DNA from: a virus
Taxonomy: Duplodnaviria; Caudoviricetes
Virus record (IMG/VR): IMGVR_UViG_3300020440_000029
Coordinates: 1 to 40,976 of that record
Strand: one strand, 5' to 3'
DNA: 40,976 bases
Positions 32 to 24,738 of this stretch are shown piece by piece (the stretch's first letter is position 1; each line of letters begins with the position of its first letter). The notes beneath the pieces are model-generated. The model ran no database searches. It saw only the letters and a list, made by a program, of their open reading frames with translations, and was not told the origin of the DNA. Position numbers and translations under genes: made by a program.

Positions 32-2041
32 TTAAGGTGTCCCGAAAGCTGAGATGTTGTCGGCAGCTACCACTGCACCAGCACTGGATAGCTTGAAGAC
101 TGTTGTGCCGTTATACTTGAAGTTTAAATCGTTATCGGCTGTGTCTAACTCGATAGTCCACTTGGACGCACCGAACCTAATGGCGTTGCCATTGGTGTCT
201 AACTCACCACCTAGTTGAGGTGTAGTGTCCGACACTAAATCAGTATTGATACCAGTCAGCGCAGAGCCGTCTATAGCTGGTAATGCTGATGGAAAGCGAG
301 CGTCTGGGATTGTGCCTGATGTAAGATTGGAAGCATTAGCTTGAGCAACAGTCAGGCTAAAAGCACCGTAAGCGATGATGTCCACATTGTCATTTGTGGC
401 AGCTGCTGAAGCTAGTGTGATTGATGTTCCGTTAGTTGCAGTGAAGTCTGCCGGCGCAAGTTTAACGCCGTTAAGATAAACATCTACAAACGCCTGACCG
501 CCTATAATATCATAAGTTGCCGGAAATACAGTCGTAGAGCCTGTGTAAGTACCAGCTGAAGTTCCTACAGTGAATGAGCCACGCTCAGTCGTTCCATTAA
601 CGCTTGAACCTGCATCGTTAAATGTAGACCCATCATATACCTTGAGTTTGTTCTGACCTGTGTTTGAATCGAACCACAAATCTCCAGCTGTAAGTTCTGG
701 ACCAGATGGCTGTGTTGTACCTACAAAGTAAGTATCACCAAAGTTGTTTACAGCGGTCAGGTTGTTGTGGACGTTATTAATTGCAGTCAGTGCAGCATCA
801 ACATTGTTAATAGCTGTAAGCGCACCATGAACTGACCCAATAGTGTTCGAGCCTGTCAGGTTGCCAGCTACAGTTCCAATAGTGTCTGTGCCAGCAATAT
901 TAGCAGCCACGTTTCCAATATCAGTTGCATCGTTAGCCACTGCTGTGATGTTTGCTAGGTTTGTTGCGTTAGCAACTGTGTTCACTGAAGTAATGTTGGA
1001 TGCCACAAGTGACAGGTTACTGTTTACCACTGATATGGTGTTGCCCATACCATTGCCATGTACAGTGCAGTAATAACGAAGTGATGATGGCGCATTGGAG
1101 GCAACATCTATCTGTACTTGTGCACCTGTCGAACCTGCTGTGCCTGTTGTAGTGACACCAGTTGTGTAGCTAGTACCTGAGCCATCTTTAAATGCAAGTG
1201 GATGTCCAGTGTTTGTGCTGTCAGACAAATCAAATATGTATGTGTTACCGCTAGTAAATGTCAGCGTCGGATTTGAAACACCGTCTATGTAATAAACACC
1301 GCCTGCAACTGTTACAACGTAAGTTGTTGTTGCTCCGAGAGCATTAGCCAAACTTGTTATATCACCAGAAATAGAAGCTAGAGTGCCTATGTTGGAATCT
1401 CTTGCAGCTACTGTACCTATATCAGCATCTCGTCCGGCTACAGTACCTATGTTTAGGTCTCTTGCAGCTACTGTACCTATATCAGCATCTCGTCCTGCTA
1501 CAGTTGCTATGTTGTTTGTTGGGCTAATCTGTCCAGCAACAGTTGCTACGTCAGTAGACACACCAGCAACTAAGCCAATATTTGTTGCATCTCCTGCGAC
1601 TGCAACTAGATTGTTCGTCGGGCTTATTTGACCTGCGACTGTTGCAATTTCATTGGTCACGGGACCAAGAGCTGCAATGTGATTAGTAGGTGTGATAACA
1701 GAAACTAAAGTGTTGACGCTTGCTTGCTGTGATGAGCTTAAGTTTAATTGCAGCCATGCTGTACCAGCAAGGTCGTATACTTTCATCACATTTAATGTGC
1801 TGTCAAAATACATGGCACCGTCGACTAAAGCGTTACCGTCATTGTCGAGTGTCGGATCTGAGTTCTTTGCGCCTAAAAAACGATCGTCAAATAGGTCGAG
1901 AGCTGTCTCAGCTGCATCTCGAGATGTACCAGCGTTTGTTGCTGCTTGCTCAGCGCTGGTTACGTAACCTTGTAGTTGTTGTGATGTTGTAGTTAACTGC
2001 TGTGGCGTGGTGCCAATGCCTTGATATAATGAGCTGGACAT
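32..2041 (-). CDS. tail fibre protein (669 aa) with internal repeats and a cupredoxin-like module
   Basis: T/G/A/N-rich; DNDGNALVDGAMYF N-terminal anchor segment, GDLWFD motif, IGTVA repeats, GHPL...YYCTVHGNGMG; last gene of the structural operon. Confidence 0.8.
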   Translation of the reverse strand: MSSSLYQGIGTTPQQLTTTSQQLQGYVTSAEQAATNAGTSRDAAETALDLFDDRFLGAKNSDPTLDNDGNALVDGAMYFDSTLNVMKVYDLAGTAWLQLNLSSSQQASVNTLVSVITPTNHIAALGPVTNEIATVAGQISPTNNLVAVAGDATNIGLVAGVSTDVATVAGQISPTNNIATVAGRDADIGTVAARDLNIGTVAGRDADIGTVAARDSNIGTLASISGDITSLANALGATTTYVVTVAGGVYYIDGVSNPTLTFTSGNTYIFDLSDSTNTGHPLAFKDGSGTSYTTGVTTTGTAGSTGAQVQIDVASNAPSSLRYYCTVHGNGMGNTISVVNSNLSLVASNITSVNTVANATNLANITAVANDATDIGNVAANIAGTDTIGTVAGNLTGSNTIGSVHGALTAINNVDAALTAINNVHNNLTAVNNFGDTYFVGTTQPSGPELTAGDLWFDSNTGQNKLKVYDGSTFNDAGSSVNGTTERGSFTVGTSAGTYTGSTTVFPATYDIIGGQAFVDVYLNGVKLAPADFTATNGTSITLASAAATNDNVDIIAYGAFSLTVAQANASNLTSGTIPDARFPSALPAIDGSALTGINTDLVSDTTPQLGGELDTNGNAIRFGASKWTIELDTADNDLNFKYNGTTVFKLSSAGAVVAADNISAFGTP
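1382..1505. repeat. 60-bp in-frame tandem duplication in the tail fibre
   Basis: 1398-1435 is identical to 1458-1495; encodes 10-aa IGTVA(G/A)RD repeats. Confidence 0.85.
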
Positions 2042-3068: not shown

Positions 3069-4001
3069 TTAGGTAAGTGCAGTGATCAGACCAGACGCCT
3101 TGTAGTTGGCGTGCTTGAGTCCGTACTCAGTTACCATCATGTGTGTGTCGGCATCGCCAGTCTTTGCGAGTAACTCGCGAGTCATTGGGCGAAGCTCGGC
3201 AATCTTCCAGTTGGCTGGGTCGTACATGAACGCGACATCAGTCTTCAAGAACCGGTTCATGACTACACGCTGCTCACCGTATGGAGAGATGTAGACATCA
3301 ACTACGTTCATCAGTGTGCGACCACCGTTAACGAAGTGCTCTTGACGAGCGTTACCAGAACCAACAGCTGAACGAGTGAAACCAGCGATTACAGTTGAGT
3401 CAGCAGGCTTGATCATCAGAACTGATGCTTCTGCGCCTTCATCATACAGCTTGTCGCCAAGGTTAAGGATCATCTGTTCAGACAGTGCTGCAGTACCACC
3501 AGCTTCTTGAACTGATGAGTCGATCACGCCATTAGAGCCTGCATCGTTACCGTGGATGTTGGCTGTGAAACGAGCTGCTGAGGATGAACCAGCTGCAGCG
3601 TTGTTGCCGCCTACTGTACGGTCACCAACCAAGTTAAATTCGATATCACGCTTAAATTCAGCGGCTTTTTTCGAAAGTTGGTAAGCAGTTTCTTGCGCAC
3701 GACCGTATGCGTCGATTGCGTCTGAAGTCGCAGACACTTTAATTGTCTTTGACTGGATCTGGGTGTAGTTCGAACGCATCACTGTTGGTGTCAGTGTAGC
3801 TGATGAAGCTGTAAAGCCTTCAACTTCAGCATTTTCTGCGACAGCCGCTAGGCTATCTTCTTGCCACTGAAACAGTGTGTTGTGAACTGACTCCTTGCCA
3901 ATTGATGACAAGAAGGGAGTCGTTGTCGGCGTAATATTGCTGATAATATCAGAAATATCTTCTTTGATGCCGACCTGGTTGTAGGTGAGATACGTTGCCA
4001 T
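3069..4001 (-). CDS. major capsid protein (SU10/DUF5309-like)
   Basis: 310 aa; EDISDIISNITPTTTPFLS, QWQEDSL, NYTQI, ELLAKTGD, EYGL motifs; follows scaffold. Confidence 0.85.
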   Translation of the reverse strand: MATYLTYNQVGIKEDISDIISNITPTTTPFLSSIGKESVHNTLFQWQEDSLAAVAENAEVEGFTASSATLTPTVMRSNYTQIQSKTIKVSATSDAIDAYGRAQETAYQLSKKAAEFKRDIEFNLVGDRTVGGNNAAAGSSSAARFTANIHGNDAGSNGVIDSSVQEAGGTAALSEQMILNLGDKLYDEGAEASVLMIKPADSTVIAGFTRSAVGSGNARQEHFVNGGRTLMNVVDVYISPYGEQRVVMNRFLKTDVAFMYDPANWKIAELRPMTRELLAKTGDADTHMMVTEYGLKHANYKASGLITALT

Positions 4002-4016
4002 CTCATTTTCCTTCTC

Positions 4017-5030
4017 TTAGGTTTTGCTGTCAGCAGACCATCTTGCAAGGAACGCATCACGTGCTGCATCGGTTGAACCAGACTTAGCGAGGTTTTCCAT
4101 GGCCTGCTTAGTCACACGTGCTTTTTGTGATGTTGGCTTTGTTGCTCCAGGCTTAAGTATTTTCTTGGGCGCTTTGGCACGTTTCTTTACAGCTACTTTC
4201 TTAGCTGCGTCGTACTTCATTGCTTTCAGAACTAACTTAATGGCTGCTGGATCAACGAGCTGATCAATGTCAGTCTTGCTGATACCTTGGCTAACACCAT
4301 ATTCCCTGAGCTTGTTATAGAGATCCTCAGACCACTCAGGGACATCAGCCTTGAGTGTTTCCATAGTCTCAGCAACCTTTGTCTTGAGTTGTTCACTCTG
4401 GGCTGCTTGTATCATCTCTATATACTTGCCTGTCTCTTGGTTTAGAAACTCATATTCTTCCATTGCCGCAGACGCTTCTTTTCGTAACTGAGCGAAGTCA
4501 TCAGGGTCCATTTGACGACTAGCGACCAGCATATCGATTTCAGCGTACGGCTTTAGCTTTTCTTCTGCCTTCTGCATTAAGGTTTGCAGCACGGCAGCAT
4601 TCTTTTGAGTTTCAGCTTCAAGAGCCTTGCGCATTTCTGCTACTTGTTGCGATTTTTTCGTAAGCGCTTTCTCTTGACCATAAAGTCTCTTTAAGTCTTT
4701 GACAGGTACTTCCAGTTCGTCGTCACCTACTTTTACTTTTGTGACTAAATCATCAGCTGCTATTTCGTATTCAGCTTCTTCTTCAGTCTCGTATTCAGTG
4801 TCGATCTCTTCATCGAGGTCTATCTCAACTTCTTCGATAACTTCTTGATCTTCAAAAGCCTCTTCTGTTTCTTCGCTTACTTCTACATCTACAGATTCGG
4901 CTTCGCCTTCAACAACGGGTTCTGATGTCTCCTCTTTCGGAGAGTCTTCCCAGCGTTGCATAAAAGCACCCATTGCTTCTTGCATTGGGTCTAACGGGGT
5001 CTCGGAGACGCTTTTAGTAGTCTCGTCCAT
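4017..5030 (-). CDS. capsid scaffolding protein
   Basis: acidic N-terminus, KVKVGDDELEV motif, coiled coil, basic C-terminus; directly upstream of capsid. Confidence 0.75.
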   Translation of the reverse strand: MDETTKSVSETPLDPMQEAMGAFMQRWEDSPKEETSEPVVEGEAESVDVEVSEETEEAFEDQEVIEEVEIDLDEEIDTEYETEEEAEYEIAADDLVTKVKVGDDELEVPVKDLKRLYGQEKALTKKSQQVAEMRKALEAETQKNAAVLQTLMQKAEEKLKPYAEIDMLVASRQMDPDDFAQLRKEASAAMEEYEFLNQETGKYIEMIQAAQSEQLKTKVAETMETLKADVPEWSEDLYNKLREYGVSQGISKTDIDQLVDPAAIKLVLKAMKYDAAKKVAVKKRAKAPKKILKPGATKPTSQKARVTKQAMENLAKSGSTDAARDAFLARWSADSKT

Positions 5031-5276
5031 TTATTGCTCCTTGGCCTCTAACAATTGTGTTTTCATGAGGACCTGTTGATTAAGTGTATTTATGATTTCT
5101 TGAACGGAGCGTGCAGCGTAATAAGCAGCTTGCCTTTCTTCTACTTGCTCTGGTTCGGTTGAAAAAAACACGCCTACGTATTGGTCCAGTAGGCTGCGTA
5201 CAGTGCCATTAAAGGCATCTGTAGCGAGCAGCGTCTCAGCACGAGTCCCCTGCTCAATAATTTGTTGTGTCTCCAC
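5031..5276 (-). CDS. hypothetical protein (~81 aa)
   Basis: start moved to GTG 5276 because AAGGAG precedes it; same frame as ORF 5031-5351. Confidence 0.6.
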   Translation of the reverse strand: METQQIIEQGTRAETLLATDAFNGTVRSLLDQYVGVFFSTEPEQVEERQAAYYAARSVQEIINTLNQQVLMKTQLLEAKEQ

Positions 5277-5286
5277 AATGCTCTCC

Positions 5287-5550
5287 TTAACATTTCCAGC
5301 GACGTCGCGCGGCTTTGCCACGCTCACCTGTCCAACCTTTCGATCTGGCACAAAATGATTTGCGTCGTTTAGCAGCTTTGCTGCCAGGCTTAACCTTACC
5401 TGTCACTGGAGCTTTTAGTTTACCACCTGTTGCCCTGTTGTACTTAGCTCTGCCTTTTGCAGTTAAGCCAGCACCTTTGGACGCAGGTAATTTCTCACCT
5501 CGACCGACTGACAGCCGAGGCTCACTTTTCTTCTTTGTCTTAGATGGCAT
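5287..5550 (-). CDS. small very basic protein (DUF6321-like)
   Basis: GLTAKGRAKYN...RRKSFCAR...RRRWKC; family assignment from memory. Confidence 0.6.
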   Translation of the reverse strand: MPSKTKKKSEPRLSVGRGEKLPASKGAGLTAKGRAKYNRATGGKLKAPVTGKVKPGSKAAKRRKSFCARSKGWTGERGKAARRRWKC

Positions 5551-9960: not shown

Positions 9961-12900
9961 TTATGACAGCGCATACATGTTCGGCTCTTGGTCAGTGCCG
10001 AATGTTTGCTGCTTCTGCTGCTCGATTTGCTGCAGTACTTCTGACATTGGTGCTTGAATAGTCTGGCTGCCTTCAGGTGTCATAATGTTAAATTTAACAG
10101 TGACACTTGCTGGGTTCAGACCATTAGCCTCTGCAATCTGCTGATAGATCGGACTGTTAGCTATGTCTCTCAAGATTGACCAGTACAGCTCACGCATTGT
10201 TTCACCGTGCTTTGCATGTGTTGCAAAAGCATCGTGTGTATGCATGAAGCCTGACGCACCAGACTGACGTAAACGGCGTGCTAATTCACGCTGCACATAC
10301 GCATCCAGTGCATGGTTCAAAAATGCTGCAAAGCCTGTAATTGCTAACTTGTCTTTGTAGACAGGAACAGCAATATTCCGAGCACTATCAAGCTCCCACT
10401 TGACACGCTTCTTAGCACTGTCAGGTAGCTTGCCTGTATAGACAGCGACGTCACCATCTGGCAGAGGAACACGCACAGCAAAACCATCTTGGCCTTGTAT
10501 GTCGAACATTGTGCTAGCGATTGCTCTAGCGACACCTTCTGCCATAGCAGCACCACGGAACTTTGTATCAAAGTCTAGCTCAAGATCATTTTGGATCTGT
10601 TTGAGGCTATCTTTGATCTCCTGAGGTCTTCCCTCGCGCGAGTCTGCGTACTCTGGCAGTGACTTAGCTATCTCATCTGCACCAGATTTCATGGCTGTGA
10701 GCTTAACTTGGCCATAAGAACGTCTATTACTAATAAATTTCTTAGTAATCTTACGTGTTTTTGTTTGTGGCAAGTTAAGTGTGCGCTCTAACATCTCAGC
10801 ACCAGGTCGATACAAATCACCACCTGGACCGTCTGGGTCCATAGGGCCAATGTTCGTTTCTGCTGCAAGATTAGCATCACCAGTTAACACAGCATGAAGC
10901 TGATAAGATGATGATGTCCCATCAAACCAAACTGGATAACTGGACTTAAAGTCTGCTAATGCAGCTTGTGCTTCAGGTCTCATAAACAGCTCGCTTGAGC
11001 TCATCTTCTTTGCATCAGGTATGATGTTTTCCAAGAAAGCTCTCATACGACCAAGTTCAACTGCTGCACGCTGCATCTCAAAACCGTGTTCAGCCACATC
11101 AAAAATGGCGTGGTTCTTTTGATACAGAGTTGTGCCAGACTGCTTGTCAAGAAACAGCTTTGGTGTACCACCACGAGTGTGAGAGTAAACGTAGCTGCCA
11201 TCTTGGCCATAAGCGTTGACCAGATAATCGATAAGCGGCATCTGTAAGTCTGCTTCAGGTATTACGTCAGTAACAGGTCGACCTGTAAGTTGCATATATT
11301 CTGCAACTGTACCAAACAAGAAACCAGCACGCATGTTGTACGGTAACTCGTTTGATATGCCGAAGTGATCACGAAGTGAGTGTAAGAACTGCTCAAAACC
11401 AGTTTCGCCTAGTGGTTCCCAGTTAGGAAACTCCCATATAGCTTTACCAGCTTTGCCTTGATATGACGCTGACCCATTGAGTGTATCAATACGCAGTCTG
11501 TCTTGAGCTTGACGCTTCATAAAGACAGGTGTCATACCACCAGTATCTTCGTTCTTGTTGTCTCTGTACTGCTTAATAGCTTCAGCTGACGCTAATGTGT
11601 AAGCACTATCAGTTGTGCCATCTTTCTTGTAGATCAGATCAAGACCACGATGTGTTTGTGGTGTGGACTGCATTTTGTCCATCATCTCGTATATCTTATC
11701 GTTGATAACAAGAGCTTGTTTCTGCTCACGTTCAATAAAGACTTCAGTGTTGTCGTATATTCCAAGTGGATGACCGTTGATCTTAGGCTTGCCACCCCAA
11801 TGAGTTGGCTTTGCTCTATTCTCAAACTTACTGATGTTGTTGAGCTCTGCTTTTTCTACAAGCTCAGGCAACGTTGGTTCAATCATGTGTACTGGGTACA
11901 AACGACCACCTGCTGATGTGCGGAAGGCAAGACCGAAGTCACCAATAATGCCAGCTTTCTGCATTGCCTTGAGAAGTGTCAAAAAGTCTTCACGATACGG
12001 CTGAATAGCCTCTTCCATGTCCATATCTGGATCTGGCTTTGTAACTACACCAGCATCATCCATGACACCAATAGCACGCAGATAGTCTGCAGCAATCATG
12101 CCCATGTCTGTTGAAGGTGTAATACGTGAAAATGTTTTTATTAACACTTCAGGTGTAATCGAAGGCAAACCGAGATTCTCAGCGATGTTCTGCATTGCAC
12201 CGTCATAATTCATATTGACTTCGACACGACGTTCTTTTGCAGAAGCTGCCTTCTGTTCAATTTCTTCAAGCCTCTTTAGCCGCTTAGCGACCATAGGACC
12301 ACCAGCTTTGTCTTTCTTGGCATAGGCTACATCAGGCACATAGAGTTGTGCATAGTGCTCATTTACCTGGCGCTGATAAGTCTTGCCTGTGTAAACATCA
12401 TCTAAGATGCTGTTGACTGTGTTAAAGCCATTGCCATCAATTAAGTTTTTGAAGGCTTCAATAAGATCTTTGATACGAGCAACAATGTATTTGATTGCAC
12501 CAGTGTTCTCACCACGTACATCTTGTATTCTTGCAGCAGTTTCAGCGAGACCTTCAAGCATCTGAGCTGTAGTGTCGAGCTCTGGATATAGCTCTTGCAC
12601 TTCTTGCATAACCTGCTTGTATTCAGGACGAGACTTAATAACTTGCATCTCTTCAGGTGTTAGCCTGTTTTCGATGGCATGAAAGATCTCGTGCAAGACT
12701 TTGCGCTTGTCACCATTTGCTGTGAGTGTGATTAACTGCTGACGACGGTAATAAGCATCCTCAGAAGCATTTAAGGCTACGTTAAAACCATTGCCTAACG
12801 CGTCAGCTACAAGCTGTGCACGTTCGACATCTGTAATCTTGTTGCCTGATTTGTGCAGTGAGCGAGACCTAAATATGTCTGCTGCTGCAAGAGCGTTAGG

Positions 12901-15474
12901 TGATAACACATACTCAGTAATAGTTTGACCAAACGGAGACTTATATGGCTCACGTTTAATCATACCGTTACGAAGCAGCTTTTCGAATATAGACTGTGGC
13001 CACATCATAGTGACACGACCATTATCCTTGGTCTGCATTGTAGTCTGAGCGAAAGCGTCAGCTTCTTGTGGCATTGTAGCTGCGAATGTTCTAGGTGTGC
13101 TAAAACCGCTGTCTTCAATTGCCTGTGCTGACTTCTTGCTTGTACCGTGATTTAGCATAACCATCGGCTCGCCGTACGTTTCACGACCAGCGTCTAGTTC
13201 TTCTTCAATTACTTGTGCCCCAGGCACACCACTAAACCGTGACTCTTGTTTAGGACCGAAGTCGACAAGAGGTTCTAAGATTTGTTTGATGTAGTCTTTG
13301 TGCTCAGGATTTTCCGCAAGAGTTTGTTCGAGCAAAGCTCGTTTTGCCACTTGACTACGAGCGTTAGCAATACTGTTAGCGCGCTGCGCAAGCTCTGGCG
13401 TAGGTGCATTTTGCACAGCGACGTCAGCTGCTCGCATTGCGTTATCAACAGTCGCTTGGTACGCCATCGGATTGATGATACCGTTTGGCCCCATGCTACC
13501 TTGTGGCAACACTTGGTTCGTGCCAGTATTCGCATTTGCTGTCTCCATGCCCAGTTCTTGGGCTGTTTTGCGTATTGCATCCTGTAAGGCGTAGAAATCA
13601 GCAGACGTATTACCTACTTTGGCTTGCTTGCCTTCAAGGTGCGCTTGATACTGATCAATTGTCTGTGCTAGGTCAGGACGAGTGCGCCGCAAAACACGAA
13701 GTGCCTGCGCTTGCTGCTTTCTATTCAAGCCTGTTGCTTGAGCAACCTGACCTTCAGCGTTTGAACCAACAGCAGGCTCTGTGCCAGTTCGCAGACCTGC
13801 CATAGCTGTAGCTTGGCGAGCTGCTTCCTGTTCAGCAAGTGATGTTGCTGCACCTTGTTCTGCTTGTTGTGTCTGACCTTGACCTGCTACGTTTATGCCA
13901 GGTGCTTCACCGTACTTTTTAATAGCTTGTGACACACGGTTACGTGCACCAGTCGCCCGATCAACTATACGGCCACCAAGAACAGCACTACCTGAAAGTA
14001 TAGGATTATAAAAAGCAAATATGCCTGATCCAACTGCTTGTGTTGAGCCAACACCACGACCAAACGTGCCTGCCTTGCGAAGTCCTTCCATAGGGTTCAA
14101 CAAGTCTGTGTATTGGCTTACACCACCCTTGACACCTTTTTGGTTGAAACGAGTGATGATATTCAAGCGGCGTGCAATTGCACCTAGCTCTGGATCTACG
14201 TTATTGAGAAACTCAATGTCAGCATTACTTGCTTCGTTCTTAGCTTTGTTCTTTGCTCTGCGTTCTGCTGTAGCAAAGTCAGCACTGTTTATATCTACAC
14301 CTGCTGCTTTCGCACGACGTTTAGCTGCATCAAACTCTTTCATATATCTTGTGTGAAGATCGTCGAGTGTCTGCTTTGCGTCGTTCAGATTCTTTGTCGG
14401 ATTTCTGTCAGTAAACTGTGTAGCTAGTGTTTGAACATCACGTGCAACATCAGCCATAGCTTCAGTGTCACCACCATGAATATTTTTCATGCTAGTCATA
14501 GCATCCATAGATGCCTGTGCTGCCTTACCAGTTTCTACAACTGTCTGGCCAGTACCTCTGACACCACCACCTGCAGAAAAGCCTGCAAAGAATGACTCTT
14601 TAAAACGAGACCTTGCTTCTTCACCTGATATGTCTTTACCAGCGACAATCGCGGTGCCCATCTTGACACCTTCTTGTGCTGTTTCAGTAAGACCTTCAAC
14701 TGTAGCACCTGTCGTAAATGCAGCAGCAATACGACCTAAGCCTTTACGCTGAAGTATTTCTCTGACACCCTTTACACCGAGTTTGCCAGCAACTTCTTTG
14801 CTTACACCTTTCAGAACAACGCCAGCACCTAAGTTTTCTAGCAGTGCCATAATGACACCACCAGTAGATGCGAGTGCTACACGCTTGTCTTGATCTAAGC
14901 CTTCAATTTCTCGTAGCTCTGCGTTTACTTCACCAGATGTTAACAGTGGTGTGACCATAGGTGCAGCCATAGCTGTCATCATGTATGGTGCAGACTCAGC
15001 AATTTTCTGTGTGCCATATTTTAAAGCAGAACCAACACCAGACACATCATCAGTTGTTAACGATCTGTAGTTGAGTGCTTGTGCTTCTTGCTGAGCTTGA
15101 TCTGCTCTTGCTCTATTAGCAGCAACACCTTGCGCTACATAAGCATCATTATCTATAGGAGCAAAACCTAGTGCTTCACGTATAGGGTTGCCGATAGCTT
15201 CTTGACCTGCGCGAGTAAGTCTACCGTATAAACCATCCTGCATAGCTTCGTTTACATCAGCCACGTAGTCTAGTGTGTTTGCACGTGACATTAACTCGCC
15301 ATGCTTAAAAGCAGTGCCCATAGATGTGTCACCTTGCGGTGCAGCGGTAGGACCACCAAGTTGTGCTAGTATTTCGTCTACAGTCTTACGTTGTTCGTCT
15401 GGTGACAGGCTTGCAAAACTCTCGTCTACTTTAATTGTCGGATAACCGTCGATGTTGAGATCAAGTTGTCCCAT
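9961..15474 (-). CDS. large internal virion (ejection) polyvalent protein: ART-like + zincin peptidase + C-terminal single-subunit RNA polymerase
   Basis: 1837 aa; EGLTETAQE ejection-protein segment; NHGT..GF...EYV (~aa 776-855); HEIFH...EGLAE (aa 928); RNAP motifs PVWFDGTSSSYQLH (D1518), RKITKKFISNRRSYG (R1574), THDAF (D1748). Confidence 0.8.
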   Translation of the reverse strand: MGQLDLNIDGYPTIKVDESFASLSPDEQRKTVDEILAQLGGPTAAPQGDTSMGTAFKHGELMSRANTLDYVADVNEAMQDGLYGRLTRAGQEAIGNPIREALGFAPIDNDAYVAQGVAANRARADQAQQEAQALNYRSLTTDDVSGVGSALKYGTQKIAESAPYMMTAMAAPMVTPLLTSGEVNAELREIEGLDQDKRVALASTGGVIMALLENLGAGVVLKGVSKEVAGKLGVKGVREILQRKGLGRIAAAFTTGATVEGLTETAQEGVKMGTAIVAGKDISGEEARSRFKESFFAGFSAGGGVRGTGQTVVETGKAAQASMDAMTSMKNIHGGDTEAMADVARDVQTLATQFTDRNPTKNLNDAKQTLDDLHTRYMKEFDAAKRRAKAAGVDINSADFATAERRAKNKAKNEASNADIEFLNNVDPELGAIARRLNIITRFNQKGVKGGVSQYTDLLNPMEGLRKAGTFGRGVGSTQAVGSGIFAFYNPILSGSAVLGGRIVDRATGARNRVSQAIKKYGEAPGINVAGQGQTQQAEQGAATSLAEQEAARQATAMAGLRTGTEPAVGSNAEGQVAQATGLNRKQQAQALRVLRRTRPDLAQTIDQYQAHLEGKQAKVGNTSADFYALQDAIRKTAQELGMETANANTGTNQVLPQGSMGPNGIINPMAYQATVDNAMRAADVAVQNAPTPELAQRANSIANARSQVAKRALLEQTLAENPEHKDYIKQILEPLVDFGPKQESRFSGVPGAQVIEEELDAGRETYGEPMVMLNHGTSKKSAQAIEDSGFSTPRTFAATMPQEADAFAQTTMQTKDNGRVTMMWPQSIFEKLLRNGMIKREPYKSPFGQTITEYVLSPNALAAADIFRSRSLHKSGNKITDVERAQLVADALGNGFNVALNASEDAYYRRQQLITLTANGDKRKVLHEIFHAIENRLTPEEMQVIKSRPEYKQVMQEVQELYPELDTTAQMLEGLAETAARIQDVRGENTGAIKYIVARIKDLIEAFKNLIDGNGFNTVNSILDDVYTGKTYQRQVNEHYAQLYVPDVAYAKKDKAGGPMVAKRLKRLEEIEQKAASAKERRVEVNMNYDGAMQNIAENLGLPSITPEVLIKTFSRITPSTDMGMIAADYLRAIGVMDDAGVVTKPDPDMDMEEAIQPYREDFLTLLKAMQKAGIIGDFGLAFRTSAGGRLYPVHMIEPTLPELVEKAELNNISKFENRAKPTHWGGKPKINGHPLGIYDNTEVFIEREQKQALVINDKIYEMMDKMQSTPQTHRGLDLIYKKDGTTDSAYTLASAEAIKQYRDNKNEDTGGMTPVFMKRQAQDRLRIDTLNGSASYQGKAGKAIWEFPNWEPLGETGFEQFLHSLRDHFGISNELPYNMRAGFLFGTVAEYMQLTGRPVTDVIPEADLQMPLIDYLVNAYGQDGSYVYSHTRGGTPKLFLDKQSGTTLYQKNHAIFDVAEHGFEMQRAAVELGRMRAFLENIIPDAKKMSSSELFMRPEAQAALADFKSSYPVWFDGTSSSYQLHAVLTGDANLAAETNIGPMDPDGPGGDLYRPGAEMLERTLNLPQTKTRKITKKFISNRRSYGQVKLTAMKSGADEIAKSLPEYADSREGRPQEIKDSLKQIQNDLELDFDTKFRGAAMAEGVARAIASTMFDIQGQDGFAVRVPLPDGDVAVYTGKLPDSAKKRVKWELDSARNIAVPVYKDKLAITGFAAFLNHALDAYVQRELARRLRQSGASGFMHTHDAFATHAKHGETMRELYWSILRDIANSPIYQQIAEANGLNPASVTVKFNIMTPEGSQTIQAPMSEVLQQIEQQKQQTFGTDQEPNMYALS

Positions 15475-15485: not shown

Positions 15486-16736
15486 TTATGGTGTATTAGC
15501 TACCTGAGGTGCTGAGACTGTAAAGCCTACTCCTGTGCTAGTTGTGCCTGAACCAGAAGAACCACTACCACCACCAGCTTGTTGCATGTACAGGTTGCGA
15601 ACTTGCGCTTCGATAGTTGCAAGAGTTCCATCAGTGTCGATGTCGTAACCAGCTAATGTGCCGTTCTGATTGAAGTAATTTAGCTGTTTCTGTTTAGCGT
15701 CTAAATATGCTTGAGCCAGCATAGAAGCTGCACGAATACGCTTAGCATTCATTTCTGGGCTTAACTGAGCATTGTATGCACGAGATATGAGCATCATACC
15801 TTCACGTTGTGTAAACTGAGCACCCAGTGTCTCACGTAGATTTTTCTGAATAACGCCAGCAACAACTTCTTGTGTGTCAAAGGAGTCTTTGTCAAAAATT
15901 GAACGAAGACCCATGTCACCTTCTTTGTCTATTAAGCGTGACACTGATTTAAACGGTGCACCCCAACTTAAGCCAGTTTGGTCTGCATTAGGTTCTTCAA
16001 GCAGATCAGCAACCATGTTTAGTGTTGCGATGTTGCCACTAATTGCTGTTGGACTGAACGTACCGATCTCTTTACCAAATGCCTTGTCACGAGCTTTTTC
16101 AGCTTCACTTAGTGGATTCAGATTTACTGGATTCCGTGTATTGGGTTTGTTTGTTACTGCAGGCTTTTTTGATGCCTTAAATGCTTCAATTTGAGCTTGG
16201 CTGTACATGTGTGTAACATCTTCTAGTTGCCCAGTACGTTTATTAAGCTGCATCACACGACCAGTTAAATGATCACCGACCCATTGTGCGTCTGCGGTTG
16301 CATTTTGCTGGTAACTCTGCTGGTCTTGTGCAATCTGACCTCGCAACAGTTGCTGATCCAACGGAAACTGTCGCACGCTTTGGTCCATATTTAGTTGCGT
16401 TTGTTCCATGCCTTGCTCGGTCTGTTTCATACCAAGCTCGGTTCTTCGCTTTTCGAGTTCATCGAGTGACAACTGACGTTTGTCTTGTTGGCGCTGTCTG
16501 AACCTTTCACGAATACCTGACTGGTAATCAGTAATCTTGCCAGTTATGTCACCACCTTGCATGGCTTGTCCGAGCAACGCGAGTTTCATACCAGTATCCA
16601 TATTTCTAGGATTAACTAGTTGCTGCATCATTTCTTGATATTGCGGATGTGCTATGCCTTGTTCATACAACGCTTTGCTTTGGTCTTCAGACAAAACACC
16701 AGCACCACGATTGTTGAGTATATCATATAGCCCCAT
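15486..16736 (-). CDS. internal virion / ejection protein (416 aa)
   Basis: Q/G/A-rich helical composition; located between tail genes and the large internal protein. Confidence 0.6.
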   Translation of the reverse strand: MGLYDILNNRGAGVLSEDQSKALYEQGIAHPQYQEMMQQLVNPRNMDTGMKLALLGQAMQGGDITGKITDYQSGIRERFRQRQQDKRQLSLDELEKRRTELGMKQTEQGMEQTQLNMDQSVRQFPLDQQLLRGQIAQDQQSYQQNATADAQWVGDHLTGRVMQLNKRTGQLEDVTHMYSQAQIEAFKASKKPAVTNKPNTRNPVNLNPLSEAEKARDKAFGKEIGTFSPTAISGNIATLNMVADLLEEPNADQTGLSWGAPFKSVSRLIDKEGDMGLRSIFDKDSFDTQEVVAGVIQKNLRETLGAQFTQREGMMLISRAYNAQLSPEMNAKRIRAASMLAQAYLDAKQKQLNYFNQNGTLAGYDIDTDGTLATIEAQVRNLYMQQAGGGSGSSGSGTTSTGVGFTVSAPQVANTP

Positions 16737-17850
16737 GTGGTCCTCCGTATGGTCTGATAGCTTTATCCATCAAATAACGAAGTGCACGTTTTACAGTAGG
16801 TTTGTTGTGTACCCAGACAGCAAACTTCTCACCATGTGTTGCATATAAATTATGAAGCCAGCGAGGTGCGTCAAAGTACATCCAATGCCTAAACATACGC
16901 CACTTGAAGTTATGCTCACCGTATACTTCACGAGCGACCCAGCAGAACAGTGTCATGCCAGTACCAATTACGTTCATCAGCTGGCCTGCTTGACTTAGGC
17001 CACCTTGTCTGTCGTAAGCACCACCATAACCAGCACCACCTGAGAAACTAGACAGTGGGTTAAACAAATTCATGTAGCTGCCAGCAAGCTGCATTGGACG
17101 ATCTTGTGCCATGTAGAACTGTTTTGCAGCGTCGTCGAGACCACCTTGGTTAAAGCCACGCATAAAGTTACCTGCGTTTGACAACATACCAAGCGAGTTG
17201 TTTGCGTTACCGAAAGCCTGCCGATTTGCACCCATCATGGAGTTGAGTGCTGTCTGCTGCTGACCAATGTTCGTATTGAACTGGTTCATACCTTGGTTAA
17301 ACAAGTTGTTCCGTATTTGTGCAGACATGTCTCCAATGTTTTCTGCTGCAAGACCTCTCATCACACCTTCGGCAACACCAGCACGTGTGTTATTGGTGTT
17401 GTTGCCAGACAGAGCTGTTCTATTGAGCTGTGGAAGCTGACTGTTGAAGAGGTTGCGCTGAATATCACGAGTTGAAGCATCAACCATGCTTTGTGCCATA
17501 GGTGAGCTAGCGAGGTTCATGCCAGCGTTATACCCACCCATAGGATTTTGCAGAGACGTCGCTAAGTTAGCTATACCTTGACCAAAACCAGACGTAGCGT
17601 TGTAGTTATTCATGCCACCTGTCATGCCTAGACCACCAAGTGTCTGCGCATTGTTGTAGTACTGCTGTTGTAGTGGATCTAAGCCAGCGTAAGTCTGACC
17701 ACCGTACACAGGATTTTGCAGATTACTCATTATATTCTGGTCGAGCGTCGGACGTATGCCGCCAAGTGCCCCTTTATACAAATCAAAAGCACCCTGTGCG
17801 ATAGGGTCGGTCGCTTGTATTGTTTTTCTGCTTCCGAATAAGCTACCCAT
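16723..17850 (-). CDS. internal virion / ejection protein with C-terminal CWVAREVYG domain
   Basis: start set at ATG 17850 (GGAG RBS, MGSLFG); G/N/Q/M-rich. Confidence 0.6.
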   Translation of the reverse strand: MGSLFGSRKTIQATDPIAQGAFDLYKGALGGIRPTLDQNIMSNLQNPVYGGQTYAGLDPLQQQYYNNAQTLGGLGMTGGMNNYNATSGFGQGIANLATSLQNPMGGYNAGMNLASSPMAQSMVDASTRDIQRNLFNSQLPQLNRTALSGNNTNNTRAGVAEGVMRGLAAENIGDMSAQIRNNLFNQGMNQFNTNIGQQQTALNSMMGANRQAFGNANNSLGMLSNAGNFMRGFNQGGLDDAAKQFYMAQDRPMQLAGSYMNLFNPLSSFSGGAGYGGAYDRQGGLSQAGQLMNVIGTGMTLFCWVAREVYGEHNFKWRMFRHWMYFDAPRWLHNLYATHGEKFAVWVHNKPTVKRALRYLMDKAIRPYGGPHGAI

Positions 17851-18145
17851 CTTTTTTTCTCCAAAGCCAGATTTGTTTGCCATCTTTCAAAGTTTCGTGA
17901 TGTACAAATCCGAACATGTATAAAAATTTTTCGTGTTTTTTGTCCTTTGGATCGTGCTCTGCATAGATCGGACCGCCATGAGCTGTGTTGACTAAGTGCC
18001 AACCACTCAGCAGCATTTGTTTTGTTAGTTTCGACCACCTTGTGTGGATGTCGCAGTGGGCAAATGTGCCTATACCTGCGACTTCTTCGAAGTAAATTGT
18101 GTAGCACCAGCGTTTAGCTACAGGGACTTTGAATAAATTCATCAC
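17843..18145 (-). CDS. hypothetical protein, possibly GNAT-like
   Basis: coupled to neighbours; HCDI and KFLYMFGF segments; position equivalent to the GNAT-like gene before podovirus core proteins. Confidence 0.45.
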   Translation of the reverse strand: MMNLFKVPVAKRWCYTIYFEEVAGIGTFAHCDIHTRWSKLTKQMLLSGWHLVNTAHGGPIYAEHDPKDKKHEKFLYMFGFVHHETLKDGKQIWLWRKKDG

Positions 18146-20728: not shown

Positions 20729-21262
20729 CTACGGAGTTGAGTCAAAGGCGACAACATCACCAGCGGTGCGTATGGTGCCATCACTTTCGATACTTAGTAT
20801 CAATGTTCCGCCGTACTTGATGTGCAGATCAGAACCAAAGGCTTGTACAGAGAAAGCACTGCCTGTGTCTTGAAACTGTATCTCTTTGTTATTGGCGTTC
20901 AGGTTGCCACCTAGTACAGGTGATGTGTCACTTTGTATGTTGGTCGCCTGATTGATGTCTGTGATACCTGACAGCGTGTTTATGTTCGCTGCAGTGACTG
21001 TCACACCATCGAGTATGTTGAGCTCTGATGTGGTGACTGTTGCACCAGCTAATATGTTTAACTCTGCGGTTGTCGCAGTTACTCCATCGAGTTTGTTAAT
21101 CTCTTCATCGCTAGCTGTAACAGCAGCATCGATATTAGGAAATGTAGCTTGTAGTGAGCTCTTGATCAGGCGTAGGTGATCGTCTGCCTGTGAGACGGTA
21201 TCAGTAGCTGTTGGGTTTGTTGCAACTAGCTGATTTATATAGGTTGCTGACTCAAGAGCCAT
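20729..21262 (-). CDS. short tail fibre protein
   Basis: start at MALESATYI (AGGAGG RBS); ADDHLRLIKS, ELNILDGVT repeats; C-terminus paralogous to 32-2041. Confidence 0.65.
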   Translation of the reverse strand: MALESATYINQLVATNPTATDTVSQADDHLRLIKSSLQATFPNIDAAVTASDEEINKLDGVTATTAELNILAGATVTTSELNILDGVTVTAANINTLSGITDINQATNIQSDTSPVLGGNLNANNKEIQFQDTGSAFSVQAFGSDLHIKYGGTLILSIESDGTIRTAGDVVAFDSTP

Positions 21263-21518
21263 GGAAACCTCCTGCATTTATGGGGGCACAAATTGATTAG
21301 TAACATCTAACAACAACAATCCCCGACTTTTTCGAAATGCGATCATTCATTTTCATAACGAAATCGTTCGAAAAAAGGGAGCTTAAGTTGTTGATTTTAT
21401 TAATTATTTTCAAACGAATTAACGAATGTGATTAGATAATAAATCTAATTATAAAATTAAACGAAAAGGATATTTAATTCGAATAAAATTCTTTTTTATA
21501 AAAATCGAATATTTTTCG

Positions 21519-21542
21519 AACGCAAATTTTTATATTTAATGA
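21519..21542 (+). promoter_or_regulatory. class A motif copy 1 (AACGC-N15-ATGA variant)
   Basis: aacgcaaatttttatatttaatga; same spacing as the other copies. Confidence 0.6.
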
Positions 21543-21587
21543 AAGAAATTAAAAAATCGAAATCGAAATTTATTCGAATATTTTTCG

Positions 21588-21611
21588 AACGCGAATTTTA
21601 ATTCTTTATGG
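21588..21611 (+). promoter_or_regulatory. class A putative phage promoter copy 2
   Basis: aacgcgaattttaattctttatgg then acaaa and GGAGA RBS. Confidence 0.75.
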
Positions 21612-21635
21612 ACAAAATAAATTCGGAGAGTTTTT

Positions 21636-21863
21636 ATGAAATTAAATGAAAATAAAATATCGATCGAAATTATAAATAAATATTTCGAAATATTTTCGAG
21701 ATTAGATCCGAAAGAATTCGAAAACGGAATAGATTTATTCGAAGAATTAAACGAAATCGATTCGAGAATTGTAAGCGATATAGAATTTGAGTGTTTCGAT
21801 CGCGATTCGGAAATCGATAATGTTTATAATGTTATTTTCGAAATTATAAAATCGATAAATTGA
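21636..21863 (+). CDS. acidic 75-aa protein, first cassette gene
   Basis: own promoter, RBS and terminator; 19 D/E versus 8 K/R. Confidence 0.7.
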   Translation: MKLNENKISIEIINKYFEIFSRLDPKEFENGIDLFEELNEIDSRIVSDIEFECFDRDSEIDNVYNVIFEIIKSIN

Positions 21864-21889
21864 GAGAGCGAAAGCTCTCTTTTTTTTTT
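21862..21889 (+). terminator. intrinsic terminator T1
   Basis: AGAGAGC-GAAA-GCTCTCT plus T run. Confidence 0.9.
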
Positions 21890-21891
21890 CG

Positions 21892-21915
21892 AACGCAAAT
21901 TTTTCGACTTTATGA
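21892..21915 (+). promoter_or_regulatory. class A motif copy 3 (ATGA variant)
   Basis: aacgcaaatttttcgactttatga. Confidence 0.6.
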
Positions 21916-21948
21916 AATCATTTTAATTTAGTTTTCGAATATTTTTCG

Positions 21949-21972
21949 AACGCAAATTTTAATGCTTTATGG
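21949..21972 (+). promoter_or_regulatory. class A putative phage promoter copy 4
   Basis: aacgcaaattttaatgctttatgg; near-identical context to copy 2. Confidence 0.75.
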
Positions 21973-21998
21973 ACAAAATAAATTCGGAGATCGAAAAA

Positions 21999-22466
21999 AT
22001 GCCTAAAACAATCGAAGTTCGTAATGATGTATTCGTAACAGGTTCAGTCGCGTGTGATTTTAAAGATTTGAGAGAATTTTATCGTTTAAATGTCGAAACA
22101 TTTATTAAAGCATTTGACGAATGTGCGAAAATCTTAAAAGTCAAAAATGCGAAATTATTATTTAATAATATTCGTAAAAAAGGCGAAGTGGGTTGTTACG
22201 TTCATGGAATTCATCAAATCAAAATCGATGTTCGTTCGTTCGACGTAAAGCAAATCGTTTCGACAATTATTCACGAAATGACTCATGCTCAACAAGCTCA
22301 AAACGGAAAACTTTCTCCTTCGAAAGATGGAAAAAGTATGATTTGGGCGAAAAAAGAATTCGCGAAAGCAAAATCTCATGACGAATATTTGAATTTGCCA
22401 TGGGAAATCGAAGCGAGAAAGAACGAAGAAAAATATATCGATCAAGTGATGAAAGCCATCGCGTGA
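21999..22466 (+). CDS. zincin-type metallopeptidase (HExxH)
   Basis: TIIHEMTHAQQ ... LPWEIEAR; start moved to ATG 21999 after GGAGA RBS (ATG 21969 is part of the promoter motif). Confidence 0.8.
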   Translation: MPKTIEVRNDVFVTGSVACDFKDLREFYRLNVETFIKAFDECAKILKVKNAKLLFNNIRKKGEVGCYVHGIHQIKIDVRSFDVKQIVSTIIHEMTHAQQAQNGKLSPSKDGKSMIWAKKEFAKAKSHDEYLNLPWEIEARKNEEKYIDQVMKAIA

Positions 22467-22474
22467 CGAAAACG

Positions 22475-22510
22475 AGAGAGTGAACGTAAAAGTTCGCTCT
22501 CTTTTTTTTT
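22475..22510 (+). terminator. intrinsic terminator T2
   Basis: AGAGAGTGAAC-GTAAAA-GTTCGCTCTCT plus T run. Confidence 0.85.
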
Positions 22511-22596
22511 ATATGAAATTCGACGAAGGCAAAACGAAGTAGTTTATTTTTCGTCAATTTATTTTTTCGATCAATTTAGTTTTCGATTTGATTTCA

Positions 22597-22620
22597 AACG
22601 CAAATTCATTTGCTTTATGG
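22597..22620 (+). promoter_or_regulatory. class A putative phage promoter copy 5
   Basis: aacgcaaattcatttgctttatgg-acaac, AAGGAG RBS. Confidence 0.75.
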
Positions 22621-22642
22621 ACAACAATTTAAGGAGATGACG

Positions 22643-22741
22643 ATGCGTCAATTATTTACGTTCATTTGTGAGTGTTTATTTCTCGTAATGTTATTCGCGT
22701 TCTGTATCGGTTTAATAATCGTGGGAGCACCATTAGCATGA
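22643..22741 (+). CDS. 32-aa membrane peptide MRQLFTFICECLFLVMLFAFCIGLIIVGAPLA (not in ORF track)
   Basis: AAGGAG RBS; ATGA coupling to the next gene; one hydrophobic helix. Confidence 0.65.
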   Translation: MRQLFTFICECLFLVMLFAFCIGLIIVGAPLA

Positions 22742-23034
22742 ACGATGTAAAGAAATTCGGAATAGATCTTGGTCGTTATCAAACTATGTTTGGCGACGAA
22801 CTCGACACCTTAATAGAAAAGTTCGAACATACTCACCTTTACGATTTAGCTGATCGTATTCTTCGTGTTGAGTCACCTCATTTATTTGATGGTGACAACG
22901 ATGTTTTAGAAGAATGTTATGACGATTTTGCTGAACAACTTTTCGAGCTTGTACAAGAACTCGGCAAACACATATTCGGTTATGAATTATACGCTGTGTA
23001 TATAACCGGAGATCGGAATATTAACGATGAATGA
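22738..23034 (+). CDS. acidic hypothetical protein (98 aa)
   Basis: start moved to ATG 22738 (GGAG upstream, ATGA overlap). Confidence 0.65.
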   Translation: MNDVKKFGIDLGRYQTMFGDELDTLIEKFEHTHLYDLADRILRVESPHLFDGDNDVLEECYDDFAEQLFELVQELGKHIFGYELYAVYITGDRNINDE

Positions 23035-23167
23035 AAATCAACTCGCTCGCATAAAAGAACTCGTTGAACTTTTAACGTGGGATTACGACAGACTTTCAAG
23101 TTCTGGTCGTAAAACTATCGATGAATTGTGTAAGGAGTTAGGTATCGATGATGAAGACGGAGAATAA
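23027..23167 (+). CDS. 46-aa protein MNENQLARIKELVELLTWDYDRLSSSGRKTIDELCKELGIDDEDGE (not in ORF track)
   Basis: fills the gap and overlaps both neighbours. Confidence 0.6.
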   Translation: MNENQLARIKELVELLTWDYDRLSSSGRKTIDELCKELGIDDEDGE

Positions 23168-23333
23168 ATATCTCGTTGTTATCGACGAAAGTGGTTACGC
23201 AGTAATTTTGCAAGAACCCGACTGCGATGACATTGAAGAATGGGTCGAAGATCGTTACGGACTTAACTGTCATTATCAATTAGTTTGGTCAGTAATCGAT
23301 CGAAGTGACGTACCAGCAAACGAATTAGATTAG
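23148..23333 (+). CDS. acidic hypothetical protein (61 aa)
   Basis: AAGGAG RBS; stop abuts terminator. Confidence 0.65.
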   Translation: MMKTENKYLVVIDESGYAVILQEPDCDDIEEWVEDRYGLNCHYQLVWSVIDRSDVPANELD

Positions 23334-23356
23334 AGGGCGAAAGCCCTCTTTTTTTT
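23332..23356 (+). terminator. intrinsic terminator T3
   Basis: AGAGGGC-GAAA-GCCCTCT plus T run. Confidence 0.9.
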
Positions 23357-23371
23357 CGTTCGCTTATTACA

Positions 23372-24736: not shown

Positions 24737-24738
24737 TT

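Follow-up and report, generated by a model that had tools for sequence, protein, structure and literature searches.

A predicted T7-type RNA polymerase at the C-terminus of a giant cysteine-free protein encoded in the ejection-protein cluster of a small integrase-bearing phage

Analysis of the virus record IMGVR_UViG_3300020440_000029 of IMG/VR led to a giant open reading frame (ORF), P0001, at position 9961-15474 on the minus strand. The stretch analyzed here, hereafter the window, is the whole record (40,976 bp, estimated completeness 99%) and holds nearly all of its genes on that strand. P0001, the last gene of the ejection-protein cluster, encodes a protein of 1837 aa with no cysteine, called here the giant. 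An earlier note on this DNA, made from the sequence alone, had proposed that a second RNA polymerase (RNAP) is hidden at the C-terminus of the giant, in a phage which also bears an integrase and a conventional T7-like RNAP. Both of these genes are present in the ~41-kb genome of this marine phage, and the C-terminus of the giant could be recognized as a right-hand RNAP of the T7 type, with a Pfam match above the family cut-off and a predicted fold that superposes on T7 RNAP. As modelled, the domain comprises aa 1101-1837 (9964-12174, minus strand) and is supported by Pfam, AlphaFold2 (AF2), Foldseek and VIA-align.

All motif strings quoted in the earlier note (QDRLRID and its continuation, motif A, DLY, motif B, NHALDA and THDAF) were found at their positions, and all of them lie on the minus strand. 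The first is QDRLRID (aa 1324-1330, 11485-11505), a degenerate form of the T/DxxGR motif which opens the string QDRLRID...YQG..GKAIWEF...EPLGETG at aa 1324-1360. Its R1328, the arginine of DxxGR, is kept in at least 90% of 30 giants, while the glycine is replaced by leucine in the clade of the window (DRLRID). The distant clade reads GANGRVY...TQxGDLMKG here (NGRVY or NLRVY), comparable to DWRGRVY...PQGNDMTKG of T7 RNAP. Motif A, PVWFDGTSSSYQLH, is located at aa 1514-1527 (10894-10935), with D1518 equivalent to D537 of T7, and is followed by DLY at aa 1553-1555. Motif B, RKITKKFISNRRSYGQ (aa 1574-1589, 10708-10755; RKITKKFISNRRSYG(Q)), corresponds to the Rx3Kx7YG pattern of T7 (R627, K631, Y639, G640); R1574 and K1578, in register with R627 and K631, are at least 90% conserved. 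In the distant clade the spacing of motif B is exact (LRKLFKKPIGTYLY), and in the model of the window protein the helix ends at the tyrosine. The PDG...beta-hairpin...NHALDA stretch at aa 1672-1724 (10303-10461; NHALDA itself at aa 1720-1725) stands at the position of PDG (730-732), the specificity loop and HSQD (784-787) of T7 RNAP. Motif C, THDAF, lies at aa 1746-1750 (10225-10239), with H1747-D1748 equivalent to H811-D812. Both catalytic aspartates, which the earlier note had considered kept, are thus retained: D1518 and D1748 align with D537 and D812 of T7 and are conserved in at least 90% of the 30 giants. Finally, the chain terminates with YALS-COOH (9964-9975; ...NMYALS), where N4 gp16 has EYALS and T7 RNAP FAFA. 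Upstream of these motifs, the segment FRTSAGGRLYP (aa 1184-1194, 11893-11925, minus strand) has nine of its 11 residues invariant and the other two at 90% or more among 23 close homologues. It forms a beta-hairpin in the model, ~20-35 residues ahead of the equivalent of T7 residue 267, and is possibly the intercalating hairpin. Its reading as the DxxGR motif was rejected, as it stands 330 residues ahead of motif A and the hairpin is upstream of the T7-267 equivalent.

Concerning family membership, the curated gathering cut-off of the Pfam RNA_pol family (PF00940) is 22 bits; the whole giant scored 32.2 bits (E-value = 7e-8) and aa 1101-1837 scored 35.1 bits (E-value = 9e-9). A six-frame search of the record with PF00940 led to three places, namely the canonical RNAP gene and two stretches in the frame of the giant. 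The giant is also matched by the RNA polymerase families 2051 and 414 of PHROG (E-value = 4e-11 and 1.9e-9, respectively), and the top clusters of the ESM Atlas for aa 1101-1837 are viral PF00940 proteins (score 0.96, 219 of 256 features common). Among the homologues, PF00940 was detected at an E-value of 0.01 or lower in all 23 close ones and in 19 of 25 distant giants, and PHROG 414, annotated as 'RNA polymerase', matched 25 of 25 distant giants (best E-value = 9.6e-31). A phmmer search against PDB sequences gave a best E-value of 0.31.

A single-sequence AlphaFold prediction of aa 1101-1837 was unusable (predicted local distance difference test score, pLDDT, of 37.8). The AF2 model was computed from 40 rows, consisting of the domain and 39 metagenomic homologues (59-81% identity) and excluding canonical RNAPs, and reached a pLDDT of 80.7 and a predicted TM-score (pTM) of 0.78. 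In the structural comparison proposed in the earlier note, the top matches listed by Foldseek against the PDB are single-subunit RNAPs only, mitochondrial and T7 (E-value = 2e-13 to 4e-9). A right-hand fold, on which the proposal had been made to depend, is predicted, and VIA-align places it closer to T7 RNAP (Z 22.1) than to the N4 mini virion RNAP (mini-vRNAP; Z 14.6, the lowest among the RNAPs listed). The T7 superposition covers 483 residues at a root-mean-square deviation of 4.0 Å, with model residues 118-737 on T7 residues 267-882, so that aa 1218-1837 of the giant superpose on T7 267-882. Yeast mitochondrial RNAP follows with Z 21.3 and gp16 of N4 RNAPII with Z 18.3 (304 of 404 residues, model 256-737). 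As the end of the model coincides with the end of T7 RNAP, the fusion protein has the polymerase at its very C-terminus. The top BFVD matches to the model are phage RNAPs. The BFVD entry A0A7S5FRK7, a viral protein of 1463 aa, has the highest query TM-score listed (0.57); possibly it represents a further fusion of a polymerase with additional sequence, from a deposited phage. Judged by its sequence and predicted fold, the C-terminal domain is a member of the single-subunit, T7-type RNAP family with its catalytic residues kept.

The giant is not a one-off. A word-indexed search recovered 35 proteins of 1703-2134 aa, with 61-100% identity in the region searched. In these homologues aa 1250-1750 are ~80% identical to the window protein and almost gapless, whereas the N-terminal half is ~45-50% identical; within the close family, no other part of the giant is as well conserved as the polymerase. 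An exhaustive HMMER search of 1.84 billion representatives gave 51 matches at an E-value of 1e-3 or lower, in 29 of which the match lies at the C-terminus of a giant of 1303-1965 aa. Three of these giants belong to the window clade and 26 to a second, distant clade at 27-35% identity to the window protein; at 50% identity, at least 29 clusters make up the family. All 30 giants end in (Y/T)A(L/V/M)S. In an alignment of their last 760 residues, 49 positions are at least 90% identical, including R1328, Q1339, K1344, D1518, D1553/Y1555, R1574, K1575, K1578, D1673-G1674 of PDG, H1721 and D1724 (the region of T7 H784/D787), H1747-D1748, A1835 and S1837. The second clade is nearly T7-like in its motifs (GANGRVY...TQxGDLMKG, LRKLFKKPIGTYLYAA and NPIHDSFG). 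A search for shorter standalone forms gave 12 matches, all of them fragments at 64-97% identity. Labels were checked for ten clusters and consist of 'hypothetical protein' (two clusters) and one sample-gene identifier. Among deposited phage genomes (50,697 records, tblastn), neither P0001, at a threshold of 1e-5, nor the distant giant P0049 found a match. In a quick maximum-likelihood tree of 48 rows (midpoint root; five rows lacking the motif-A pattern left out; the N4 virion RNAP not among the rows), all 32 giants and three cysteine-free fragments are separated from ten RNAPII-type proteins and the T7-type enzymes by a branch with SH-aLRT support of 93. Residue conservation, the extent of the family and the tree speak for an active enzyme and for a fusion that arose once and long ago.

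With regard to closest relatives, the sole match of the C-terminal domain in a tblastn search of the 50,697 phage records is 'RNA polymerase 2', the RNAPII large subunit, of an N4-like Alteromonas phage (E-value = 1e-3). The two are 35% identical across 123 residues, a segment reaching from the PDG hairpin up to and including motif C, at a pairwise E-value of 2e-10. The family hidden Markov model (HMM) ranks the Alteromonas phage protein first (45 bits), followed by N4 gp16 (22.8), the phage's own RNAP (10.9), T7 RNAP (3.6) and the N4 mini-vRNAP (-2.6). Comparison of the family with the single sequence of N4 gp16 by hhalign gave a probability of 60%, for motif A only. The best PDB profile match is N4 RNAPII as well (6dt7_B). 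Moreover, the C-terminus of N4 gp15 (DKRGRTY..NYQG..KAVLEF) aligns, with a weak score, with QDRLRID..SYQG..KAIWEF, and in the superposition N4 gp16 starts at model residue 256. The domain thus resembles a minimal polymerase in which counterparts of gp15 and gp16 are fused. The likeness to the N4 virion RNAP put forward in the earlier note does not hold for the sequence: N4 RNAPII (gp15+gp16) is nearest and the mini-vRNAP has no sequence match. The domain shares with N4 RNAPII (PDB 6dt7) and its Schitoviridae homologues the small size (~670-740 aa), the C-terminal ...YALS and the best sequence match. Unlike that heterodimer, the giant is one uninterrupted chain, as seen in 35 close and 26 distant proteins, with ~1100 non-polymerase residues in front and an additional ~85 residues separating DxxGR from motif A. 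The giant also lacks cysteine, whereas gp15 has four and gp16 nine cysteines, and is encoded in the structural/ejection cluster.

Compared with T7 and mitochondrial RNAPs (PF00940), the domain has the same fold, motifs A, B and C, PDG, the equivalents of H784 and D787 and a functional-looking C-terminal tail. It differs from T7 RNAP in that ~115 residues replace the ~266-residue N-terminal promoter-binding domain, and from the T7 and mitochondrial enzymes in a low identity (12-16%), in its fusion to a virion-type protein and in the lack of cysteine.

The position and composition of the giant suggest that it is likely packaged in the virion and injected. Two genes precede it at 15486-17883 (minus strand), encoding products of 416 aa (15486-16736) and 386 aa with no and one cysteine, respectively, and the 386 aa product matches PHROG 4287, 'DNA ejection protein'. 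The giant is the last and largest gene after the tail genes and the PHROG 4287 gene, an order which is identical in the distant 45.7-kb genome G006. Its N-terminus (aa 119-312) has a weak match to PHROG 30152, 'virion structural protein' (E-value = 1.9e-4), and among 25 distant giants one matches 'internal virion protein' and one 'virion structural protein'. The strongest line, although a correlate and not a formal criterion, is the absence of cysteine. None is present in 1837 residues, while 18 are expected from the 0.99% mean of the phage's other 27 proteins (P ~1e-8). Of the 29 other giants, 26 have none and three have one. The ejected proteins used as controls agree (N4 gp50 has none in 3491 residues; N4 gp51 and gp52 and T7 gp15 and gp16 have none either), as opposed to the cytoplasmic RNAPs, with 12 cysteines in T7 RNAP, four in N4 gp15 and nine in N4 gp16. 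In 14 standalone RNAP-like matches (313-749 aa, not ending in IPTA(L/V)S) three to nine cysteines were counted. To judge from these counts, a normally cysteine-bearing polymerase family has lost every cysteine precisely in its fusion to an ejection-cluster protein. Within the window the capsid, the scaffold, the 416 aa protein and several small structural ORFs (3069-5351 and others) are also cysteine-free, portal and fibre have one cysteine each, and the replication enzymes contain 1.6-2.6%.

The region in front of the polymerase contains the only HExxH of the giant, the HEIFH at aa 928-932 (12679-12693, minus strand), which is nearly invariant in close homologues and possibly a zincin-like peptidase motif. 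The search of this region against Pfam peptidase families gave none, the only match being DUF6938 at an E-value of 0.017. A stretch ...MLNHGTSKKSAQAIEDSGF... was observed upstream of it, at aa ~775-800, and in the ESM Atlas cluster nearest to aa 1-1100 (score 0.88) 43% of the members contain ART-PolyVal. Together these hint at further effector domains (peptidase, ADP-ribosyltransferase (ART)); Pfam finds neither a peptidase nor an ART nor any other polyvalent-protein domain in the giant. In the literature, RNAP modules are described in virion-delivered polyvalent proteins (PMC5512222) and internal virion proteins (IVPs) are viewed as hosts of domains destined for the cytoplasm (PMC4819975).

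By analogy, the giant may work like N4 gp50 (mini-vRNAP, PDB 2po4/3c2p), also a giant cysteine-free protein that is encoded after ejection proteins and carries a T7-type polymerase module; an HExxH in the same polypeptide is reported for gp50 too (PMC5512222). The two differ in length (1837 against ~3500 aa) and in architecture, as the polymerase here is at the extreme C-terminus and not in mid-protein between injection and encapsidation domains. The genomes also differ, that of the window being 41 kb long and encoding both an integrase and a full T7-like RNAP, and PHROG 2166, 'N4-like RNA polymerase', is matched by two of 25 distant giants only. Like T7 gp16 and the IVP-D class, the giant is the last and largest gene of a series from tail to ejection proteins and is cysteine-free, as T7 gp15 and gp16 are; unlike them, it shows no detectable sequence similarity to that class, and Pfam found no lytic transglycosylase domain. 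Delivery of a polymerase within a giant virion protein, with a second polymerase that is not in the virion acting afterwards, has also been described for the tape-measure-fused RNAP of Thermus phage P23-45 (PMC10770324) and for gp66 of the crAss-like phage phi14:2, yet those are two-barrel enzymes of the cellular type, while the one presented here is a right-hand T7-type enzyme.

The coexistence of two polymerases is not confined to the window. Records of all five close relatives (four at least 94% complete, one 78%) contain a canonical RNAP (185-337 bits) and the fused domain. The second clade is represented by two near-complete genomes (100% and 93%), each of which encodes a canonical RNAP in addition to its giant, and by three fragments (32-41%) that are uninformative on this point. 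A canonical RNAP was thus found in all eight near-complete or large genomes examined (the window, five close and two distant). In the distant genomes G006 and G007 its frames are ~580-626 aa long, compared with 831 aa in the window, and in G006 the replication module is on the strand opposite to the structural module.

A promoter-like motif was detected on the plus strand. The 24-nt pattern ACGCAWWTTTT-N4-YTTWATGRA occurs in seven copies there against 0.11 expected, between 21520 and 24238, and can be written ACGCAAATTTT-N4-CTT(T/A)ATGGA(CAA) or ACGCAAATTTT-N4-CTTTATGGACAA. In five of the seven, GGAG and the ATG of a small plus-strand ORF follow within ~30-40 nt, and several copies stand directly behind a terminator hairpin. 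Five relatives have five to eight copies each, on one strand, opposite both polymerase genes, and a control with the reversed pattern gave none. The consensus of 38 instances from the opposite-strand islands of six genomes is TTTC..ACGCAAATTTt..c.CTTtATGGACAA. A variant, ...CCTATGCA, is located at 39493-39516 on the minus strand, between the lysozyme stop and a hairpin with T-run before the integrase, just upstream of the int-MarR-RNAP genes; three relatives show the same arrangement, and the variant reads ...CATC(C/T)TA(T/A)TGCA in the window and these relatives. Another variant, ACGCAAATTTGTACCATCTAAGGTA, was observed at 27552-27576 (minus strand) within the 294-nt gap before the ribonucleotide reductase gene, a gap which also contains a strong terminator-like hairpin (27396-27429, minus strand).

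The motif may be a promoter used by one of the two polymerases of the phage. A promoter of a phage single-subunit polymerase is the likelier reading, because conservation extends into GGACAA, presumably transcribed, a T/A-rich block precedes the GG and the fit to a sigma-70 -10 element is poor. Hairpin promoters of the N4 type were rejected, given that a hairpin accompanies three of the seven copies only. No second conserved promoter class was found in 2,013 nt of main-strand intergenic DNA beyond the two variants of the same motif, and sigma-70-like sites in 21000-40976 number 31 against 37.9 expected, so there is no enrichment. Repeated 12-mers of G006, considered as promoters, proved to be tandem repeats of the fibre gene only.

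The seven copies belong to an island of ~8 small plus-strand ORFs (21278-25400; GC content ~37-38%), most of which have their own motif copy and intrinsic terminator (for example 21862-21881, 22474-22503, 23332-23349, 24174-24191 and 24924-24951). This organization is conserved in all five relatives, and the island may be an early, anti-defence or lysogeny-expressed block. One of its ORFs (22000-22466, plus strand) has an HEMTH motif and a weak match, below the cut-off, to DUF6782, 'putative metallopeptidase' (E-value = 9e-6).

Regarding the rest of the genome, the first genes in transcription order are two small membrane-type ORFs, a lysozyme and the tyrosine integrase (38617-39507 as listed, likely start 39441; PF00589, 89.9 bits), followed by a MarR-like protein and the conventional T7-like RNAP (35329-37824, minus strand; 831 aa, PF00940 335 bits, 13 cysteines). 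A replication block comes next, with single-stranded DNA-binding protein, endonuclease, ThyX, MazG, primase-helicase, DNA polymerase, exonuclease and ribonucleotide reductase. After the 4-kb AT-rich island described above stand the tail genes, the PHROG 4287 gene, the 416 aa gene and the giant ORF, and the last genes are terminase, portal, scaffold, capsid and tail fibre. The nearest cultured relatives of the portal, at ~30% identity, are N4-like phages, Pseudomonas phages of the NV1/UFV-P2 type and pelagiphage HTVC106P, and not T7, while those of the conventional RNAP are T7-like phages of Ralstonia and Bordetella (33% identity); the genome is therefore a mosaic. The tail-fibre gene (32-2041) contains tandem 30-nt (10-codon) repeats at 1377-1650 (minus strand), and a comparable block is found in the fibre gene of G006 (15034-15209). 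ARAGORN detected no tRNA gene in the window. Directly downstream of the integrase gene, however, there is a 66-nt copy of the 3' part of tRNA-Arg(ACG), from the D-arm to CCA (38520-38585, plus strand), which lacks the 5' end and therefore was not called. This stretch is probably the attP core. Among the genomes of 185,579 species, its sole exact match is in a metagenome-assembled genome labelled Sansalvadorimonas sp. (Hahellaceae, Gammaproteobacteria), which can serve as a lead to the host only, and no integrated copy of the phage was found in the same set.

On balance, we consider it probable that the C-terminal ~740 residues of the giant are a T7-type RNAP which is packaged with the ejection proteins, injected and starts transcription without the host RNAP. 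In this scenario the giant, synthesized late, would enter the particle as the largest of the internal or ejection proteins and would pass the tail and the envelope unfolded, together with the two smaller ejection proteins; such threading is proposed as the reason for its lack of cysteine. The free C-terminal polymerase would then refold on the cytoplasmic side and transcribe the entering DNA from phage-specific promoters, and its products, directly or through a relay, would include the conventional RNAP, which would take over. In T7-type RNAPs the C-terminal tail residues belong to the active site, which is why such a polymerase needs a free C-terminus. A broader version, possible rather than probable, would have these proteins form a second, independent lineage of virion RNAPs: a cysteine-free enzyme of ~740 residues and T7/RNAPII type, carried on the main ejection protein of ~40-45-kb marine podophages and, once injected, reading the 24-nt promoters of the phage itself (predicted start GGA), from which a relay free of the host RNAP would lead to the conventional RNAP even in a temperate, integrase-bearing phage.

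Several observations weigh against a packaged, transcribing polymerase. Pairwise support against solved structures is weak, with a best PDB profile match at an E-value of 0.0028 (6dt7_B); hhalign of the family gave a probability of 0.4% with the single sequence of T7 RNAP and no polymerase alignment with the N4 mini-vRNAP. In the window clade the T/DxxGR motif is degenerate (DRLRID) in a stretch modelled at a pLDDT below 50, and Tyr1587-Gly1588 of motif B is displaced one residue later relative to T7. The nearest sequence relative, N4 RNAPII, is a cytoplasmic enzyme, which by itself is described as using single-stranded templates only (PMC4496689). Pfam assigns nothing to the N-terminal part of the giant, its close homologues or the distant giants, and aa 1-1100 and the two neighboring genes gave no significant match to T7 gp13-16, N4 gp51-54 or HTVC106P gp41-43 in a comparison of low sensitivity (for aa 1-1100, family HMM against single-sequence targets). 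The promoter-like motif is not attributable to either polymerase, and a terminator-like hairpin stands immediately after its variant before int. Furthermore, it is not obvious why a phage with a full RNAP would require another.

Four other explanations were weighed. Transcription drives T7 DNA entry, and an injected, active polymerase could have a main job other than mRNA synthesis, pulling the genome in while anchored to the ejectosome or making primers for the first round of replication. The fusion to the largest ejection-cluster protein and the complete RNAP that the phage already encodes for gene expression would suit such a role, and transcription by the N4 virion RNAP is reported to transport the genome into the cell as well (PMC4496689). 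However, pulling and mRNA synthesis are not mutually exclusive, and the conserved beta-hairpin at the position of the specificity loop, along with the conserved promoter-like motif, suggests specific initiation rather than idling, so that we regard this explanation as unlikely. That the fold is a pseudo-enzyme, serving the ejection apparatus as a DNA-binding or scaffold module, would accord with the degenerate DxxGR and the shifted motif B tyrosine. Yet at least 90% of 30 giants (identity to the window protein only ~30% in 26 of them) retain both metal-binding aspartates, the arginine and lysine of motif B, H1747-D1748 of motif C, H1721/D1724 and the C-terminal tail, and the polymerase domain is the most conserved part of the giant. 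A scaffold would need none of these residues, which makes a pseudo-enzyme quite unlikely.

The giant could also be a multidomain enzyme of the cytoplasm and no virion component, its RNAP acting after its own synthesis, for instance as a late-gene polymerase. We hold this to be very unlikely, even if the closest sequence relatives, of the N4 RNAPII type, are cytoplasmic and the N-terminal part has no detectable homology to known ejection proteins. The gene directly follows one of a 'DNA ejection protein' family and the tail genes, and weak PHROG matches point to a virion protein at its N-terminus and, in one distant giant, to an 'internal virion protein'. The cysteine counts separate the two classes: none in the giant and none or one in all 29 others, none in the proven ejected N4 gp50/51/52 and T7 gp15/16, as against 3-13 in the cytoplasmic RNAPs checked. 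As for a chance resemblance of motifs or an assembly artefact joining two genes, pairwise BLAST to the phage's own RNAP indeed gives no more than a weak match (E-value = 0.025). Nevertheless, the Pfam score over the curated cut-off, the structural Z of 22 and the uninterrupted architecture in 35 close proteins and 26 distant clusters, from many contigs, already refute it, leaving a probability that is practically negligible.

Virion RNAPs are known in the literature from N4-like, crAss-like and jumbo phages and from P23-45, and large cysteine-free proteins have been a subject of speculation in Zobellviridae-like phages. The earlier note did not recognize the present arrangement as described, and a full-text search of the literature outside subscription-only papers and supplements agrees with it: no description was found of an ejection-cluster protein that ends in a T7/RNAPII-type polymerase in a phage with a T7-like RNAP, and passages of PMC4819975, PMC10386132, PMC5512222, PMC11654794, PMC4496689 and PMC10747016 mention no such fusion either. 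All of the at least 29 clusters are metagenomic and unnamed, so annotation pipelines miss this family. If the favored reading of a packaged and injected polymerase is true, the virion-RNAP strategy reaches small (~41 kb) integrase-bearing podophages with a T7-like polymerase, in a protein half the size of the N4 one and by an ancestry different from that of the N4 virion RNAP, the nearest relatives being among RNAPII/T7-type polymerases. If active, the enzyme would allow a start of infection independent of the host RNAP, which is relevant to the evasion of defence and to inhibition of the rifampicin type. The complete loss of cysteine in a cysteine-bearing enzyme family would represent a natural experiment and could serve as a simple marker by which ejected proteins are recognized, and these phages may supply a compact pair of single-subunit polymerase and promoter for biotechnology.

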